IMG/VR virus record: IMGVR_UViG_645058835_000004
Coordinates: 1-39,344 of that record
Length of the DNA stretch: 39,344 bases
DNA from: a virus
Taxonomy: Duplodnaviria > Heunggongvirae > Uroviricota > Caudoviricetes
Direction: 5' to 3' (one strand)
Shown here: piece after piece, positions 935 through 39,344 of the stretch
Layout: every line of letters begins with the position of its first letter
How positions within the stretch are numbered: the first letter of the stretch is position 1
Made by a program: the position numbers and the translations under genes
The notes under the pieces: generated by a model
What the model was told of the DNA's origin: nothing
Database searches by the model: none
What the model saw: the letters and a program-made list of their open reading frames with translations, nothing else

Positions 935-2620
935 GTGAATATAAACGTCGCCGAATTGTTAAATGGGAATTACATTCTGTTATTATTTGTGGTCCTCGCG
1001 CTTGGGCTATGTCTCGGAAAGTTACGACTTGGTTCGATCCAACTGGGTAATTCCATTGGCGTTTTAGTCGTATCGCTGTTATTAGGCCAACAACATTTCA
1101 GCATTAACACCGATGCGCTTAATCTTGGCTTTATGCTGTTTATTTTCTGCGTCGGGGTCGAAGCCGGACCGAACTTTTTTTCCATTTTTTTTCGCGATGG
1201 GAAAAATTACCTAATGTTAGCACTGGTGATGGTTGGCAGTGCGCTGGTGATCGCCTTAGGGTTAGGTAAGCTGTTTGGCTGGGATATTGGCCTGACGGCC
1301 GGTATGTTAGCAGGCTCTATGACGTCGACACCGGTTCTGGTCGGTGCTGGCGATACACTGCGTCATTCCGGCATGGAAAGCAGGCAGCTCTCACTGGCAC
1401 TGGATAATCTGAGCCTCGGGTATGCCTTAACCTATTTAATCGGTCTGGTGAGTTTGATTGTTGGTGCGCGTTACTTGCCGAAATTGCAGCATCAGGACTT
1501 ACAGACCAGCGCCCAGCAAATCGCCCGCGAACGTGGCCTGGACACTGATGCCAACCGTAAGGTTTATTTACCGGTGATCCGCGCCTATCGCGTCGGCCCG
1601 GAGCTGGTGGCCTGGACCGACGGCAAAAATCTGCGTGAACTGGGTATTTATCGACAAACCGGCTGCTACATTGAACGTATTCGACGTAACGGGATTCTGG
1701 CAAATCCAGACGGTGATGCCGTGCTACAAATGGGCGATGAAATAGCGTTGGTAGGCTATCCCGACGCCCATGCCCGACTCGATCCCAGCTTCCGTAACGG
1801 TAAAGAAGTTTTCGATCGTGACCTTCTCGACATGCGTATCGTCACTGAAGAAGTGGTCGTTAAAAACCATAACGCTGTAGGTAAACGTCTCGCACAACTG
1901 AAGTTGACCGATCACGGTTGCTTCCTTAACCGCGTCATTCGTAGCCAGATTGAGATGCCGATAGATGACAACGTCGTGCTTAACAAAGGTGACGTTTTAC
2001 AAGTCAGCGGTGATGCCCGTCGCGTAAAAACCATCGCCGATCGCATCGGCTTTATCTCGATTCACAGCCAGGTCACTGACCTGCTGGCATTTTGCGCCTT
2101 CTTTGTTATTGGGCTGATGATCGGGATGATCACCTTCCAGTTCAGCACATTCAGTTTCGGCATGGGGAACGCTGCCGGGTTGTTATTCGCCGGAATTATG
2201 CTGGGCTTTATGCGTGCTAACCACCCGACCTTCGGTTACATTCCGCAAGGTGCATTAAGCATGGTGAAAGAGTTCGGCTTGATGGTGTTTATGGCAGGCG
2301 TTGGTCTGAGCGCCGGTAGCGGTATTAATAACGGCCTGGGCGCGATTGGCGGTCAGATGTTGATTGCCGGATTAATTGTCAGTCTTGTGCCCGTGGTTAT
2401 CTGTTTCTTGTTCGGTGCTTATGTATTGCGAATGAACCGCGCACTGTTGTTCGGCGCAATGATGGGCGCACGCACCTGCGCGCCGGCAATGGAGATCATC
2501 AGTGATACAGCTCGCAGTAACATCCCTGCGCTGGGCTATGCGGGCACCTACGCAATCGCCAACGTCCTGCTGACGCTGGCAGGGACAATCATCGTCATGG
2601 TATGGCCAGGATTAGGATAA
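935..2620 (+). CDS. ybjL: Putative transporter YbjL (AAE-family membrane protein with central soluble regulatory domains)
   Basis: 561-aa ORF with N- and C-terminal hydrophobic halves flanking a soluble central region; size and synteny match E. coli ybjL. Confidence 0.85.
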
Positions 2621-14915: not shown

Positions 14916-16175
14916 ATGTTTAGATTATCTAGTGTCAAGATTGAAGGTTTTTGGGGAAGACTAAATGCATCATGTTCATTTAATGAAGATGTAAATATTA
15001 TTATTGGTCGAAATGGGACCGGTAAAACAACCTTTATGAATATTCTTCACTCAGTTCTGGCATTAGAACTTGAATCGTTAAATGAGAATAGTTTTGATAA
15101 TGTAACAATAAAAATAAAAGAAGGAAGCAAAACTAAAACAATAAAAGTTGTGAGTAAATTTGACATAACTAAGGCTTTGCCTACGTTTGAATATACAATT
15201 TCTAGAAAGAAATATATTATCAGATCCTTTGAAGATCGTAGGCTGCCTATATATATGAGGAGAAAATATCAGGAAGACGTTGAAAAACTTAAGTTAGAGC
15301 TAGATAAATTAGTTGCTTTATCTTCTCTATCAGTTTACCGACTTAGAAGCGGTGAAGATTTTGAAATCAGAGACAAATATGGCTCAAAATTAATCAACCC
15401 CGTTGATTACCGATTAGAACAATTATTGCAGAATCTAACAAAATATCAGCTTTACTTATCACAAAGAGCTCGTGATGTTTCTGCAAAATTACAGAAAGAG
15501 GTTCTTGCTTCTATTCTTTATAGTAAAGAAGATGGTATCGATGACACATTTAACTTTTCTTTTGATAAAGAAAAAGAACGTAGAAATTTAATAGCTGCAT
15601 ATTCTCAACTTGGAGCTTTTGATAGTGATGTCAGAAAGAAGATTAACTTTCACGTTGAATCTATTGCCAATACATTTGAAGAACTACGACTTGCAGAAAA
15701 AAACAACAGAAATATTTTAAATGTAGATTACAGATCATTTGAGGCATTACGAAAGACGCAAAGAATTATAAAGATGTCTTTAAAATCCGAGGAGGAAATA
15801 AAAAACATATTTCTTCCTATAAATCTATTTTTAGAAACATTACATGAGTTCATAACCGATAAAAAATTTAATTTTATCTCCGGTGAGCTAGTAATAGAAA
15901 ACGAGCATGGGCCGATTAGCCATAGTAATTTATCGTCTGGAGAAAAACAGCTATTAATTCTTTTTATTGAAACTTTGCTACAGCAAAACAAACCTTTCAT
16001 CTATCTTACTGATGAACCAGAATTATCACTACATATTGCATGGCAACGAAAAATAATACCTGCAATCAAACAACTTAACCCTAACGCACAAATTATCGCC
16101 GCTACGCATTCACCAGAAGTGGCCTCTAAATATCGAAATGCAATCTTTGATATGGAGAAATTGGTTCATGGATGA
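14916..16175 (+). CDS. ABC-type (SMC/RecF-like) ATPase, PARIS AriA-like candidate
   Basis: 419-aa AT-rich ORF: Walker A GRNGTGKTT (aa 31-39), signature-like LSSGEKQ, Walker B FIYLTDEPE, H-loop ATHSPE; opposite strand to the flanking tail genes. Confidence 0.6.
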   Translation: MFRLSSVKIEGFWGRLNASCSFNEDVNIIIGRNGTGKTTFMNILHSVLALELESLNENSFDNVTIKIKEGSKTKTIKVVSKFDITKALPTFEYTISRKKYIIRSFEDRRLPIYMRRKYQEDVEKLKLELDKLVALSSLSVYRLRSGEDFEIRDKYGSKLINPVDYRLEQLLQNLTKYQLYLSQRARDVSAKLQKEVLASILYSKEDGIDDTFNFSFDKEKERRNLIAAYSQLGAFDSDVRKKINFHVESIANTFEELRLAEKNNRNILNVDYRSFEALRKTQRIIKMSLKSEEEIKNIFLPINLFLETLHEFITDKKFNFISGELVIENEHGPISHSNLSSGEKQLLILFIETLLQQNKPFIYLTDEPELSLHIAWQRKIIPAIKQLNPNAQIIAATHSPEVASKYRNAIFDMEKLVHG

Positions 16176-17019
16176 TTTCCATTATTCTGCCGAAGCAGAA
16201 AATGTAATGAATTTATTTTACCAAGCTGAAGCCATGGTTTATGTTGAAGGCCCAGATGATATTTGCTTTTGGGAAATCATCTTTAATAAAGCTAGTTCAT
16301 TAAAGGTTGAAATCAAAGATGTTGGCGGCTGTGAAGAATTAAAAAAATATATTGATAGAGTTACTGATGAAGATCTTCAAATTATTATTGCATGTGATGC
16401 AGACTTCACTACATTTGAAAATGAAGAAAACGCTGATAGTCGTATTGTAAAAACTTATGGGCACTCCATCGAAAACACATTTATTGACAAAACAGGCATA
16501 TATAAGGCAATAAAAACTCTCGGGAAATTACCGCAAAAGATAATGAACGATGTCAACATCGATTCTTGGACAGAAGACTTTTATACCAAAATGGAACCCC
16601 TAATAAAACTTGATATATACAATCATATTTATAGAAAAGGCATTTCAGTTATTGGTGACAGTGCAGATCGTTTCATGAAATCTAGAAAATCAAATGAAAT
16701 TTGCGAGCAAAAAATCACGGATTACAAAAACACCATTATTGAAAAATTAGGTGTGGAACCAGATAACATCGATTCATCTTTCAAATCAAAATCGATAGAA
16801 TACAGAAAGTGGCTTAGAGGTCATTTTCTTTTTTCTGCAGTACATAGGTACATTAGCACAACTGCAGAAAAAAATGGAAAAAAAGTATCCTTATCATATG
16901 AATCACTATATTCCAATTTAATGAATACATTTGAATCTAATTTTACCAATACTCATATTGAGTTTAATCATTACCACGAAAAAATCAAAGCCATAAATAT
17001 GCCACACGAAATGAAATAA
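16138..17019 (+). CDS. Toprim/DUF4435-like nuclease partner, PARIS AriB-like candidate
   Basis: 293-aa ORF (alternative ATG at 16168 overlaps the upstream stop as ATGGATGA); N-terminal YVEGPDD glutamate motif and a later IIIACDADF (DxD) motif consistent with an OLD-type Toprim; AT-rich. Confidence 0.55.
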   Translation: MQSLIWRNWFMDDFHYSAEAENVMNLFYQAEAMVYVEGPDDICFWEIIFNKASSLKVEIKDVGGCEELKKYIDRVTDEDLQIIIACDADFTTFENEENADSRIVKTYGHSIENTFIDKTGIYKAIKTLGKLPQKIMNDVNIDSWTEDFYTKMEPLIKLDIYNHIYRKGISVIGDSADRFMKSRKSNEICEQKITDYKNTIIEKLGVEPDNIDSSFKSKSIEYRKWLRGHFLFSAVHRYISTTAEKNGKKVSLSYESLYSNLMNTFESNFTNTHIEFNHYHEKIKAINMPHEMK

Positions 17020-25463: not shown

Positions 25464-26009
25464 TTAAAATCTACGCCTAAATCCTAGTTTCTCACCCGGT
25501 GTCATTGCCCTACCGACCGCTCCTTCTAATAAATGAGTGTTGTTCTGTAAATGCTCGCGAGCCCACGGCTGCAAATTGAAAGCGAATCCGTCAATCATAC
25601 TGCCCACGTTTGCAGCTCTATAGGTTATGCGCTTAGCAACCAACCCCCCCATAACACCATCTTCAGGACCACACATTAGTGAGTTTTCGCCATCAATTAT
25701 ATAAGACCAGAGGTATCCCTTCTCCTCAGGAGTTAGCTTCTCCAAATAAGAGATACGTACTTTGTGCCTTTGTCTATCGCCATATAGGTCATGAAAAAAC
25801 TGATATACTCTTGCAACTAAAAAAGAGACAGCCAGTAAAAATGCTGGTCCTATGAAATTTCTATATTCTTTACGGAAACCATCAACCGCAACTTTAGAAG
25901 CTAAAGATTCTGGCAAAAAAAGGATCAAACTTAAACCACATGTAATAGCTACAAGAAGTGCCGTTGGAATCTTTCTAAAAAAATCCAATAATCCAGTAAT
26001 AGCATCCAT
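25464..26009 (-). CDS. Small membrane protein, moron between Q and cos (possible superinfection-exclusion-type protein)
   Basis: 181-aa ORF with two N-terminal hydrophobic segments and a soluble C-terminal domain; lower GC than the flanking backbone. Confidence 0.5.
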   Translation of the reverse strand: MDAITGLLDFFRKIPTALLVAITCGLSLILFLPESLASKVAVDGFRKEYRNFIGPAFLLAVSFLVARVYQFFHDLYGDRQRHKVRISYLEKLTPEEKGYLWSYIIDGENSLMCGPEDGVMGGLVAKRITYRAANVGSMIDGFAFNLQPWAREHLQNNTHLLEGAVGRAMTPGEKLGFRRRF

Positions 26010-26095
26010 TTATTTACACCTCAATATGCTCAAAAAACCGCGTCAAATTCTACCTCATAACCTTACTAAAAACACCGTATCCCCATCAGCGCGCG

Positions 26096-26114
26096 CTCGT
26101 ATCCCCGCCACGCC
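26096..26114 (-). other. Candidate cos site (cohesive-end region)
   Basis: Minus-strand GGCGTGGCGGGGATACGAG resembles the P2 cohesive end GGCGAGGCGGGGAAAGCAC as I recall it (14 of 19 identical); lies distal to Q; direct repeat CGTATCCCC 23 bp away. Confidence 0.45.
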
Positions 26115-26432
26115 TGCCCGCTTTATGTAGTGGTTTTCATGCACCTGCATGTTCTACGTAAAAGCCCGCTAGTTCTGGCGAGCCTTAGCAAAAACGATCC
26201 TTAAACGATCATGCGATTTCATGCAGCATAGTCATGCACTGTCTAAGAGAAGTGAAAGTCCCTGAATGACCACTTGAAAAACGAAACATACAGACTTACA
26301 AAGATGAAGCTCTACTGTGAGCGAGGAACATACATAGTTGCTCTGTAATAGCCAAATTTTAAGCAGGAAATCTCTTTTTTATGACAAAACTATAAAGAAA
26401 AACAGACCGTTTCATCGCTCGATGAAAATATA

Positions 26433-28010
26433 CTACAATACTTTTCTCTCGATGGTATTTTTAATGGTCAACATATCTTTAGGAATACTTTTTTTCCCCT
26501 CTATACGTATGGTAAACACAAAAAGAATAACTGCTGATCTCACAATTTTCATGAGTTGTAAGAGCTGTTTCTCAAACTTTTCTTTCTCAATAAATCTCAC
26601 CTCATCAAAAAATCCATAAGAATTATATAAATCAACTAACATGTCTTTCTCGTGAATAACTAACAGTTTATGTTCTAAATCATTCCTCCATTCTTTAAAA
26701 AAAGCAAGCTCACCATTTTTATCATTCAAATCCATAGCAATACTAAACAAACCCAGCAATCCTTTATTATTTATTTTGTTTATTTTAAGCTTTCTTTTTT
26801 CATCACTAATCCGCCAGAAGTTATGAAAGTATATATGTCCTCTATCTGGTTTTAAATCAAATAATTGACACAGAGCAACTGCTATTTTATCCAAGATACC
26901 AAAGCAAGCTCTAAATGCAACCCTTAACTTCTCAACATTTTCATACAATATTTCTCCATTATACAATTCAGAATAACATACCTCCGAATCCTCATCAAAA
27001 AACTCACTATCAACCTTATATTCAAAAAACATTTTTCGTGCTAAGGAATACTCAGCTTTAAGTCTATTTAACACCATTTCCATTGGCACTATAAAATCAC
27101 CAAACACACCTTCCTCGGTGGTAGCAATAGTTATATTATCTTTAGATGACGCATAACAATTGCAATATAGCGAATGATCAGACAACATTAGATTATTATC
27201 TATACAAAACCTCTGGTAGTTTGATAAAGTATCATACTCCTCCTGCGTGAGCCTTTCATCTGTACTTATATCCTCTATGCCATATACACATGATTCACTC
27301 AATATACTTTCGTTGTACTTTATTTTTCTTTGAAGAGCAACCTTCCATGAAGGAAAACATTTCCCTGACTTTATTGCACACTCATAACCTCGAATAACTT
27401 CTTTAATCATTTTATATGTATATGTTGTAGATAATTCATTAAGCAATTCTAATGCCTCAGATCTGTTTACCCACGCCTGAGGAATTGAGTTATCAATAGA
27501 TATTGCTTGTTCATAATAATCCATTGATTCAGATATACGATATTGTTTTTTTAATACATTAGCTAGATTAACTATTAAATCAGGGGGCACCCATCCATCT
27601 TCTTGTGAAAGTTTAAACGCTTTCCAGTAATTATTTTTTACATCATTCAGCTTAATGAAACTATCAATATCTGCATTGTCATTAGGATTAAAATCAAGAA
27701 CTGCGCTCATTCCATTTGCCAAGTTATAGTAATATAAGGATTCTTTCATTATAGTCAGAAATTCATTTTTATTGTTTATAAAGATATTTAAGCCTTCCTC
27801 CGCTATATTTTTTACATTACTAAAACTTCCGATATCAATAAGATTTCCGGCCAAATTAGATAATATAATTATTCTATTTTCTTTGATTGTATTTATCTCA
27901 TCGATACCGTTAAGAATATCCTTTACATTTTTATAGGCAGAATCAAATGAACCTGCATTAATAAGATCATCTACGAACCCCATTTTTGAAACAACATAGT
28001 TGATATCCAT
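26433..28010 (-). CDS. Cargo protein with TPR-like repeats and C-terminal HEPN-like RNxxxH motif (candidate abortive-infection/defence RNase)
   Basis: 525-aa strongly AT-rich ORF at the P2 old/tin-equivalent position; TPR-like helical segments; motif WRNDLEH (R442-H447, approx. 26670-26687). Confidence 0.5.
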   Translation of the reverse strand: MDINYVVSKMGFVDDLINAGSFDSAYKNVKDILNGIDEINTIKENRIIILSNLAGNLIDIGSFSNVKNIAEEGLNIFINNKNEFLTIMKESLYYYNLANGMSAVLDFNPNDNADIDSFIKLNDVKNNYWKAFKLSQEDGWVPPDLIVNLANVLKKQYRISESMDYYEQAISIDNSIPQAWVNRSEALELLNELSTTYTYKMIKEVIRGYECAIKSGKCFPSWKVALQRKIKYNESILSESCVYGIEDISTDERLTQEEYDTLSNYQRFCIDNNLMLSDHSLYCNCYASSKDNITIATTEEGVFGDFIVPMEMVLNRLKAEYSLARKMFFEYKVDSEFFDEDSEVCYSELYNGEILYENVEKLRVAFRACFGILDKIAVALCQLFDLKPDRGHIYFHNFWRISDEKRKLKINKINNKGLLGLFSIAMDLNDKNGELAFFKEWRNDLEHKLLVIHEKDMLVDLYNSYGFFDEVRFIEKEKFEKQLLQLMKIVRSAVILFVFTIRIEGKKSIPKDMLTIKNTIERKVL

Positions 28011-28297
28011 TCAATCCTCTTTAAACTAAGCTAATAATACCAATCATTATATGGATGAGATCAATATAGAACATGCCATCTCCGGCAAAAATCGTACTAC
28101 ATCAGACCAGTGCCCTTCAAATAATATAAATTGAACTTAGATACTTCTGCTTCAACCAGTGTGTTAAATCCATCGCTTGAACTCAGAACAAAAAGCGGAC
28201 GATCACTTATCAAAATGGCCGTCCACCTAACGCCTCGTTTCACTCGTTGCCCAAAATAGTCCCCCATCAGAATGAATCCTCTTGGGGGCAACGTTTC

Positions 28298-28531
28298 TTA
28301 ATGCAGCCAGCTGTCGTCTTCCCACACCTTCTGCATAATTTTCATCACTTGCTTCCTTTCTTCGTCCAGTTGCAGTCCGATCAGTTCCACACCGTTAGAG
28401 CTACCTTTGCGAATGCGAATTACCGTTTTGGGATACAGGGGGCGCAGATTGCGGTAAAGCTCGGATTCAAGGGCGTCCAGGGTAGACTGGCTAATCTTCT
28501 GCTCTTTATCGATCATTATTTCAATGCGCAT
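28298..28531 (-). CDS. DinI-family protein (Tum-like antirepressor module)
   Basis: 77 aa from the internal ATG (MRIEIMIDKEQK...WEDDSWLH) with DinI-like layout; second gene of a LexA-boxed operon. Confidence 0.75.
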   Translation of the reverse strand: MRIEIMIDKEQKISQSTLDALESELYRNLRPLYPKTVIRIRKGSSNGVELIGLQLDEERKQVMKIMQKVWEDDSWLH

Positions 28532-28541
28532 AAAAGTCACC

Positions 28542-28730
28542 TCAGCTGATGACATCCATTGAGCGGTTGTATTCGTGGGTTCTGATTTTTGCCATGAGTT
28601 CATCTGTCAGTTCAGAAACCCACTGCAGGGCCAGCCCCTTCTCTTCATCACTACACTCACTAGCCGCTACAAGCTTAAGAAAAAAATCAATGCGCTGGAG
28701 CTTCAAAGACTCCAAAAAATAGTCCTGCAT
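28542..28730 (-). CDS. Small hypothetical protein, first gene of the SOS operon
   Basis: 62 aa from the internal ATG preceded by GGAGG; the longer ORF to 28832 would read through the LexA box. Confidence 0.4.
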   Translation of the reverse strand: MQDYFLESLKLQRIDFFLKLVAASECSDEEKGLALQWVSELTDELMAKIRTHEYNRSMDVIS

Positions 28731-28771
28731 CTTTCCTCCTATGACACCACAAGCAATACTGTACGCATAAC

Positions 28772-28791
28772 CACTGTTTATATTTACAGTA
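28772..28791 (-). promoter_or_regulatory. LexA box (SOS operator) upstream of the DinI/Tum-like operon
   Basis: cACTGTttatatttACAGta, a perfect CTGT-N8-ACAG with AT-rich spacer, about 40 bp upstream of the small-ORF ATG. Confidence 0.65.
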
Positions 28792-28883
28792 TATAATAAT
28801 CTTACTGATGTAAAACGTTTTTTTACGTTCATCAGCCTGATATACCTGGTATTATTAAGAGCACGAATTGTTAACCCGCGTAA

Positions 28884-38312: not shown

Positions 38313-39344
38313 ATGGCAGTACGAAAACTCACCACAGGAAAATGGCTTTGCGAATGTTACCCCGCCGGACGTAGTGGACGTCGTGTGCGTAAACAATTCT
38401 CCACCAAAGGCGAAGCTCTGGCTTTTGAGCGTCACACGATGGAAGAAACCGAAGCAAAGCCCTGGCTGGGTGAATCAATGGATCGTCGAACACTGAAAGA
38501 CGTGGTTGAGCTATGGTTCAAACTACATGGTAAATCACTGACTGCTGGGCAGCATGTCTATGACAAATTGCTGTTGATGGTTGACGCTCTGGGCAATCCC
38601 CTTGCAACTGATCTCACCTCTAAAATGTTTGCCCACTATCGAGATAAACGCCTGACAGGTGAGATCTACTTCAGCGAGAAATGGAAGAAAGGAGCAAGCC
38701 CGGTCACTATTAACCTGGAGCAAAGCTATCTAAGTAGTGTCTTTAGCGAACTATCCCGCCTGGGCGAATGGTCGTATCCGAACCCACTGGAGAACATGCG
38801 AAAATTCACCATCGCAGAAAAAGAGATGGCATGGCTTACCCATGAGCAGATTGTTGAATTGCTGGCTGATTGCAAATGTCAGAACCCAATTCTGGCACTG
38901 GTAGTTAAGATATGCTTAAGCACAGGCGCACGCTGGCGTGAAGCCGTAAATCTTACCCGCTCACAGGTGACCAAATACCGAATTACCTTTGTAAGAACGA
39001 AGGGGAAGAAAAACAGAAGCATCCCTATCAGTAAAGAGCTTTACGAAGAGATCATGGCGCTTGATGGGTTCAATTTCTTCACAGACTGCTATTTTCAATT
39101 TTTATCCGTGATGGAAAAAACGTCTATCGTGCTCCCTCGCGGTCAACTGACACACGTTCTGCGCCATACGTTTGCGGCGCATTTCATGATGTCGGGTGGA
39201 AATATCCTTGCTTTGCAAAAAATCCTCGGACATCACGACATAAAAATGACCATGCGTTACGCACATCTGGCACCGGATCACCTGGAAACTGCATTACGGT
39301 TTAATCCGCTGGCAACACTACCAACATCAACAGCAACTGTTTGA
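38313..39344 (+). CDS. int: Tyrosine integrase (P2 Int family)
   Basis: 343-aa ORF with C-terminal catalytic region (RxxxxxxxF...LRHTFA...HxxxxMTMRYAHL); last gene before the expected attL, ends at the window edge. Confidence 0.9.
   Translation: MAVRKLTTGKWLCECYPAGRSGRRVRKQFSTKGEALAFERHTMEETEAKPWLGESMDRRTLKDVVELWFKLHGKSLTAGQHVYDKLLLMVDALGNPLATDLTSKMFAHYRDKRLTGEIYFSEKWKKGASPVTINLEQSYLSSVFSELSRLGEWSYPNPLENMRKFTIAEKEMAWLTHEQIVELLADCKCQNPILALVVKICLSTGARWREAVNLTRSQVTKYRITFVRTKGKKNRSIPISKELYEEIMALDGFNFFTDCYFQFLSVMEKTSIVLPRGQLTHVLRHTFAAHFMMSGGNILALQKILGHHDIKMTMRYAHLAPDHLETALRFNPLATLPTSTATV

Follow-up and report, generated by a model that had tools for sequence, protein, structure and literature searches.

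The window analysed here, the whole 39,344-nucleotide (nt) stretch of the tailed-phage record IMGVR_UViG_645058835_000004 (Caudoviricetes), carries a LexA-boxed operon of two small genes, tumA and tumB, on its minus strand, immediately 3' of replication gene A. With high confidence, we read this locus as the operon through which the SOS response induces a Fels-2/186-type (Peduoviridae) prophage; the tum antirepressor gene known from phage 186 is here naturally split into tumA and tumB. Four observations carry this reading: the layout of the locus, the relationship of each half to 186 Tum, the finding that box and split alike are conserved among relatives, and the near-identity to loci that have been studied in the laboratory. 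The original prediction had proposed a Tum-type antirepressor operon at this place, and this is borne out with one refinement: the antirepressor appears to be the 62-residue TumA, the DinI-like TumB being the accessory half.

The operon lies directly downstream of a P2/186-type gene A (28884-31331, minus strand; Pfam Phage_GPA, E 8e-128) in a P2/186-like genome, the same order as in 186, PSP3 and Fels-2. All its elements are on the minus strand. The p95-type SOS promoter has a -35 hexamer TTTACA (28809..28814) 17 nt upstream of TACTGT (28786-28791), which is at once the -10 hexamer and the first six bases of the LexA operator TACTGTAAATATAAACAGTG (28772..28791). A leader of 31 nt separates this box from the Shine-Dalgarno sequence AGGAGG (28735..28740), which stands 4 nt before the ATG of tumA at 28730 and brings the distance from box end to start codon to 41 nt. 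tumA (28542..28730) encodes the 62-residue antirepressor module, the homologue of the N-terminal half of 186 Tum, and ends with a TGA at 28544-28542. This stop codon is overlapped by the Shine-Dalgarno sequence of tumB, GAGGTG (28538..28543), 6 nt before the ATG at 28531; tumB (28298..28531) starts exactly 10 nt after tumA and encodes a 77-residue DinI-like protein, the counterpart of the C-terminal half of 186 Tum. In fact, most of this layout had been foreseen: the near-consensus SOS box at 28772-28791, the small open reading frame (ORF) with a strong ribosome-binding site about 40 bp past the box, the DinI-family gene 10 nt further on, and a DinI frame that stays open upstream of its ATG, which it does for 24 codons overlapping the end of tumA. 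The upper coordinate given at the time, 28832, has to be corrected. It is only an upstream in-frame ATG of a mechanical 96-residue ORF, and because the promoter and the LexA box lie inside that extension, the real start of tumA is 28730.

Just past the tumB stop, at the position of 186 t95a, a GC-rich hairpin is followed by the U-rich tract ACUAUUUU (28261..28288, minus strand). It is a possible, weak candidate for a partial terminator, and we make no firm terminator call. The hairpin is not significantly more stable than shuffled sequence (z = -1.2) and was not reported by a generic terminator scan, which reported only a weak hairpin straddling the tumA/tumB junction that we regard as incidental.

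The LexA box is far better than chance would produce. It agrees with the consensus TACTGT(AT)4ACAGTA at 17 of 20 positions, every core position being intact, and has 1 mismatch among the 12 specified arm bases of TACTGT-N8-ACAGTA. As the sole CTGT-N8-ACAG in the 39-kb window it is by itself not significant, the loose pattern being expected 0.47 times per window. We also scored it with a heterology index, using an approximate 20-position matrix built from 20 E. coli operators of the literature: the box has an index of 4.6, within the range of the reference operators (1.1-8.9), and no 20-mer at or below 4.6 was found in 100 shuffled windows, where the best reached 6.3. Ranked in this way, the window holds a box in the int promoter at 2.7, the tum box at 4.6, and then nothing before 10.7.

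The position of the box is conserved as well, and this comparison is the stronger evidence. We compared the locus with 11 other Peduoviridae tum loci spanning several genera (186, PSP3, Fels-2, SopEPhi, SEN8, MLG42, Klebsiella phi4.1, ESSI-2, ESSI2_ev015, YenM324 and 613R3), and a TACTGT-N8-ACAGT box precedes the first gene at the matching position in all 11. Box aside, the flanking DNA is unalignable between groups of loci. A TTTACA, TTCACA or TTCCCA hexamer is found at a comparable distance upstream of the box in 11 of the 12 loci, YenM324 being without one, and the 186 record annotates the identical arrangement as promoter p95, with a -35 TTCACA, a -10 TACTGT and a LexA site. A weak second LexA-like box, CAGTGGTTATGCGTACAGTA (28757..28776, minus strand), overlaps the tum operator by 5 nt. 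Its index in the window, 10.9, is at chance level; its counterparts in HS, Fels-2, SopEPhi, MLG42 and phi4.1 score 6.1-7.9, and the ACAGT arm is conserved there. It may act as a second, tandem operator like those of colicin promoters, or may simply be conserved leader sequence.

The second gene is readily placed. TumB matches the whole of the Pfam DinI profile (PF06183, positions 1-63 of 63; E 9e-23, 80.8 bits vs a cut-off of 24.2), aligns with residues 71-145 of 186 Tum at 41% identity (E 1e-24) and aligns end to end with the structure of E. coli DinI, 1GHH (E 5e-7). The ratio of nonsynonymous to synonymous substitution rates (dN/dS) is 0.03-0.09 for tumB; against relatives at a synonymous divergence (dS) of ~0.8-2 it is 0.05-0.09 for tumB and 0.07-0.10 for tumA, and both genes are thus under strong purifying selection as separate ORFs.

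The first gene had been described as unknown. This holds for curated families and for pairwise comparison, as neither Pfam nor NCBIfam places TumA in a family and BLASTP does not match it to Tum; it does not hold at the level of profiles, which link TumA to the Tum N-terminus. Because the BLASTP, Pfam, NCBIfam and PDB searches were negative (a profile search of PDB sequences returned only noise, E > 0.3), the homology of TumA was established through PHROG profiles and hhalign. TumA matches phrog_698 (4e-38), phrog_8554 (2e-8) and phrog_1993 (2e-3); residues 1-61 of 186 Tum match phrog_1993 (1e-22), phrog_8554 (1e-11) and phrog_698 (3e-5); and PSP3 TumA matches phrog_1993. When a six-sequence TumA-family profile was compared with 186 Tum by hhalign, residues 4-43 aligned to residues 4-43 without a gap (E 1e-4, probability 56%), and an alignment of nine sequences contains a common core in which Cys26 and Ala34 are invariant. 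A single-sequence AlphaFold model confidently predicts a helical hairpin, with helices at 2-23 and 28-61 (predicted local distance difference test score, pLDDT, 91.6). Both ORFs thus align to 186 Tum, TumB pairwise and TumA by profile only, and by these homologies TumA and TumB are the two halves of 186 Tum. The antirepressor module also exists alone, since ESSI2_ev015, ESSI-2 and vB_YenM_324 have a LexA-boxed tumA homologue of 70-74 residues, with a Gly/Ser-rich tail, and no DinI-like gene at these loci.

Close relatives of this operon have been dissected experimentally. Over a 700-bp region, it matches Fels-2, E. coli phage vB_EcoM-813R9 and numerous Klebsiella P2-like phages at 97-98% identity (97.5% for the Fels-2 locus), and DuoHS, a prophage of E. 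coli HS, at ~97%; the DuoHS copy has the very same LexA box and 10-nt junction. In DuoHS, mitomycin C no longer triggers lysis or virion formation once "tum" is deleted in frame, or when the lexA(Ind-) allele is present (Phollow study, Nat Microbiol 2025, PMC12055606). The deletion primers, NHR24 and NHR28, join the ATG to the TGA of the 62-residue gene and leave the beginning of the DinI gene, GGTGACTTTTATGCGCATTG, in place (PMC12055606, supplementary file 3). Their cores have one exact match each in the window, at 28728-28750 and 28522-28544. The primers flank the 62-residue gene exactly, and thus the gene required in DuoHS is the homologue of tumA. The tum gene of Fels-2 and of PSP3 has also been described as split in two, the upstream gene of PSP3 being the antirepressor (Lemire 2011, PMC3121763); the split itself is attributed to Bunny 2002, as cited by Lemire 2011 (PMC3121763). 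The PSP3 record annotates tumA as "similar to 5' end 186 tum; UV induction of prophage" and tumB as "similar to dinI and 3' end of 186 tum". When TumA and TumB were looked up in the literature as whole words, all that came back were unrelated uses of these words.

What would TumA act upon? The window encodes a 186-type CI immunity repressor (35073..36029, plus strand; Pfam Phage_CI_repr twice and Phage_CI_C once), the presumed target of TumA, within a 186-type immunity region that also has an Apl-like gene (34763-34984) and CII (34221-34784). Pfam finds no S24 peptidase domain (Peptidase_S24) in this CI, and because CI cannot cleave itself, induction needs an antirepressor. The 186 Tum protein is such a factor: made from the LexA-controlled p95, it is a stoichiometric anti-CI factor that binds CI and prevents operator binding (PMC7708051, PMC3121763). 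We propose that, in the lysogen, host LexA bound to the operator over the -10/start region of the sigma-70 promoter would keep the operon off. Upon DNA damage, activated RecA would provoke the self-cleavage of LexA and the promoter would fire, giving one mRNA and two small proteins. TumA would act as the antirepressor, its non-covalent binding and sequestration of CI stopping operator binding, and the early lytic promoter pR would then be derepressed, leading to lytic growth. With a CI devoid of an autocleavage domain, TumA would be the only route from the SOS response to induction. TumB, as a free-standing DinI homologue, probably acts on RecA filaments, tuning the strength or the duration of the SOS response, and would not be needed for the switch. 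For the phage in the window, we infer that TumA binds CI, that the helix-turn-helix (HTH) domain of CI is the contact surface, and that TumB has the role just outlined.

The HTH contact is suggested by a comparison of CI and TumA across 11 phages, a small and phylogenetically non-independent set. Phages whose TumA is at least 89% identical to that of the window have CI HTH domains 65-95% identical to those of the window CI, and C-terminal oligomerisation domains only 27-44% identical; in phages with distant TumA types, the identity to the window CI falls to ~47-48% for the HTH domains and reaches up to 48% for the C-terminal domains. Thus, the HTH and not the C-terminal domain tracks the TumA type, which suggests that TumA docks on the DNA-binding domain of CI and would fit the prevention of operator binding. 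Phages with a TumA 98-100% identical to that of the window differ in CI architecture, the HTH being either single or tandemly duplicated. The window CI is of the latter form: 318 residues, with two tandem Phage_CI_repr HTH domains that are 59% identical to each other and one Phage_CI_C. The CI proteins of 186, HS and Fels-2 have a single HTH (189-210 residues), and a double-HTH CI is also found in Klebsiella phages ST11-OXA245phi3.1 and Kp4860-7, both with an identical TumA.

Could the two ORFs be a single gene that has come apart? Following the suggestion of a "split or frameshifted" Tum, we considered a 186-like tum broken by a sequencing error, by a recent frameshift or pseudogenization, or read through a programmed +1 frameshift. 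The 24 open codons upstream of the DinI ATG would fit such a break, as would the sum of 62 and 77 residues, close to the 146 of 186 Tum. The record of phage 500465-1 also yields one tblastn alignment that spans both Tum halves; we rejected that fused reading as noise in sequence quality, because the frameshifts of this record compensate one another, as is typical of an error-prone assembly, and its DinI gene reads through. Against a break, the 10-nt junction is identical in Fels-2 and HS, the locus recurs in 1,083-1,125 of 5,426 complete E. coli genomes (~20%), tumB has its own Shine-Dalgarno sequence, and the split is described in the literature (PMC3121763). In addition, the spacer varies among relatives: 10 nt in the window, Fels-2 and HS, 11 nt in SopEPhi, SEN8 and phi4.1, 12 nt in MLG42, and 3 nt in PSP3 and 613R3. 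With these spacers tumA and tumB share a frame in some relatives and not in others, and the tumA stop codon is variously TGA, TAA or TAG, such that no single recoding event could be conserved. Finally, conservation is seen at the TumA C-terminus but not in the DinI-frame translation 5' of the tumB ATG. A single fused Tum of ~146 residues is not what we find: the two ORFs lie in different frames, 10 nt apart, and their conservation as separate genes makes the locus the split tumA/tumB variant of PSP3 and Fels-2 type rather than the fused 186 form. Of the two earlier suggestions the split therefore stands, as a conserved two-gene form, and the frameshift falls, given the separate purifying selection on the two genes, the varying spacers and frame relations, and the unconserved extension. 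Judged from these alignments, the split is natural and sequencing error, pseudogene and programmed recoding are excluded; we give a broken tum next to no chance.

Two further explanations would preserve the genes and change their meaning. In one, the palindrome is a chance match or the site of another protein and the operon is not SOS-regulated. It is true that CTGT-N8-ACAG is expected 0.47 times per window and that LexA binding to the tum box is a prediction. Yet the box has 17 of 20 consensus positions with its core intact, an index of 4.6 that 100 shuffles did not match, and one fixed promoter position across 12 diverged loci; moreover, lexA(Ind-) blocks the induction of DuoHS, whose box is identical. 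We regard a fortuitous palindrome as extremely improbable. In the other, the small protein of the first ORF has nothing to do with Tum, and the operon, by way of its DinI-like protein, does no more than modulate the host SOS response, without any control of induction. This would agree with a first ORF that lacks a curated family and pairwise BLAST similarity to Tum, and LexA-controlled DinI homologues of lambdoid prophages are indeed dispensable for induction (PMC3121763). It would not account for the profile-level links of the first ORF to the Tum N-terminus, for a genomic position and promoter architecture that are those of the 186 and PSP3 tum genes, or for the retention of the LexA box at tumA-only loci. 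Removal of the exact ORF in the 97%-identical DuoHS, with the DinI gene kept, abolishes induction, and a CI without a self-cleavage domain requires an antirepressor. An operon that serves only to modulate SOS is thus very unlikely.

Several points nevertheless weigh against the SOS-induction operon that we favour. In pairwise comparison TumA resembles 186 Tum weakly: BLASTP aligns nothing, neither Pfam nor NCBIfam has a family for it, and hhalign assigns a probability of just 56%. A generic promoter scan did not call the tum promoter, as its -10 hexamer, TACTGT, shares just 3 of 6 positions with TATAAT. The experiments stem from relatives (DuoHS, PSP3 and 186) rather than from the window's own prophage, to which they would extend by analogy, and the assignment of the PSP3 antirepressor is second-hand, a personal communication of G. 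E. Christie (PMC3121763). The part played by TumB is likewise one that we infer, and non-polar deletions of dinI homologues in Gifsy prophages were without effect on induction (PMC3121763).

A LexA-type box is also present at the integrase gene. This box, CACTGGTTATATATACAGTA (38264-38283, plus strand), has the lowest index in the window, 2.7, and sits in the spacer of a promoter-like TTGACA-17-AAGAAT, 30 nt before int, whose ATG is at 38313. It also precedes int in DuoHS of E. coli HS, and homology common to ~1,100 E. coli genomes begins ~10 nt upstream of it; in Fels-2 and SEN8, where int abuts cI, the box is not present. The arrangement suggests SOS-controlled expression of the integrase in this lineage, and LexA may release antirepression and integrase expression in parallel. 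In the full-text library that we searched, LexA, integrase, P2-like and SOS box did not occur together in any paper.

The window also carries several defence cargos. The similarity to Fels-2 and HS breaks off at the stop codon of tumB, and between tumB and the portal gene lies an island on the minus strand (25464-28010) with a GC content of 28-36% vs ~53% in the phage core. Following tumB on the same strand is an AT-rich gene (28-35% GC) for a 525-residue TPR and HEPN_LA2681 protein (26433-28010, minus strand; Pfam E 2e-38), and after it, in the same island and on the same strand, a 181-residue SieB-like superinfection exclusion protein (E 2e-22). The island occupies the position of 186 orf97, which is co-transcribed from p95 via a partial terminator (186 record). 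By analogy with p95 and orf97, SOS transcripts that pass tumB may read into this adjacent defence-gene hotspot.

Elsewhere, three cargo genes lie in the lysogenic operon between cI and int (36030-38234, plus strand): one for a 260-residue protein with weak DUF3644-like matches, and a PADLOC candidate defence pair, PDC-M11A (356 residues, E 2e-130) and PDC-M11B (127 residues, ASCH, E 5e-48). Among the tail and baseplate genes, and on the strand opposite them, an AAA_15/AAA_21 ATPase (419 residues) and a DUF4435 protein (293 residues) are encoded with a 38-nt overlap (14916-17019, plus strand). Their best PADLOC matches are AriA (1e-38) and AriB (3e-24), which points to a PARIS-type defence pair. 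The prophage is flanked by host ybjL, encoding an Asp-Al_Ex permease (935-2620, plus strand), as in the DuoHS neighbourhood of E. coli HS; the window is thus a segment of an E. coli chromosome, in which the prophage starts at about 2.8 kb and continues past the window end, where int is cut.

What does this locus mean more broadly? The system has been published and dissected by experiment; this locus adds one more copy of it and is in that sense already known. It explains how DNA damage is coupled to induction without repressor cleavage in a common class of E. coli, Salmonella and Klebsiella prophages. There is also a practical value for annotation: RefSeq calls tumA "hypothetical protein" and tumB "DinI-like family protein" in the E. 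coli genomes that carry them, and the 62-residue gene could be named tumA wherever it is present. The architecture, the split, and the need for LexA cleavage and for the 62-residue gene are all published, and the locus raises no new question on these counts. Some wider ideas are more speculative. Judging from the sequence comparisons, TumA could cross-induce heteroimmune Fels-2-type prophages residing in the same cell. That one TumA allele is a shared, broad-specificity antirepressor, that LexA releases int in parallel and that SOS read-through reaches the defence genes is, as a joint reading, something we hold only tentatively and consider rather unlikely.

Among known systems, the nearest are Fels-2 (STM2728 and STM2726.1) and DuoHS of E. 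coli HS (ECHS_RS04495, "tum", and ECHS_RS04500). Their TumA is 98-100% and their TumB 99% identical to those of the window, they too follow gene A, and the ybjL-adjacent chromosomal site is shared with HS. They differ by one amino-acid change in each protein, by a gene of 225-243 residues after tumB where the window has the TPR/HEPN gene, and by CI: the C-terminal domains are only 27-32% identical, and the HTH is duplicated in the window. In PSP3, too, tum is split, comes after gene A and is headed by a consensus LexA box, and TumB is closely similar. The PSP3 TumA, in contrast, belongs to phrog_1993 and is ~14% identical to that of the window, and its two genes are in frame, with the stop codon and one codon between them (the 3-nt spacer), whereas those of the window are out of frame and 10 nt apart.

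The p95-tum-orf97 operon of 186 shares with the window the LexA box over a TACTGT -10, the -35 hexamer 17-18 nt upstream, the location downstream of gene A, the order of an N-terminal and a DinI-like module, and a 186-type CI. In fact, a free DinI-like product is annotated in 186 as well, from an internal GTG (GVG... start) at a position equivalent to the start of tumB. The 186 Tum is nevertheless one polypeptide of 146 residues, the N-terminal modules are only ~16-20% identical, and orf97 is replaced in the window by unrelated cargo. More remote are the dinI-antirepressor(gfoA/gftA)-irsA operons of Gifsy-1/2/3, which are also LexA-repressed and also combine a small antirepressor with a DinI homologue and an uncleaved repressor (PMC3121763); there, dinI comes first, which reverses the order, the antirepressors and repressors are unrelated, and the background is lambdoid. 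As for E. coli DinI (PDB 1GHH), TumB shares its MRIE start and its C-terminal W-E-x-D-x-W helix but reaches only 45.5 bits vs the 111-bit cut-off of the NCBIfam DinI equivalog (NF007893). Being below that cut-off, TumB is best taken as a phage DinI-like paralogue rather than an orthologue of the chromosomal DinI.

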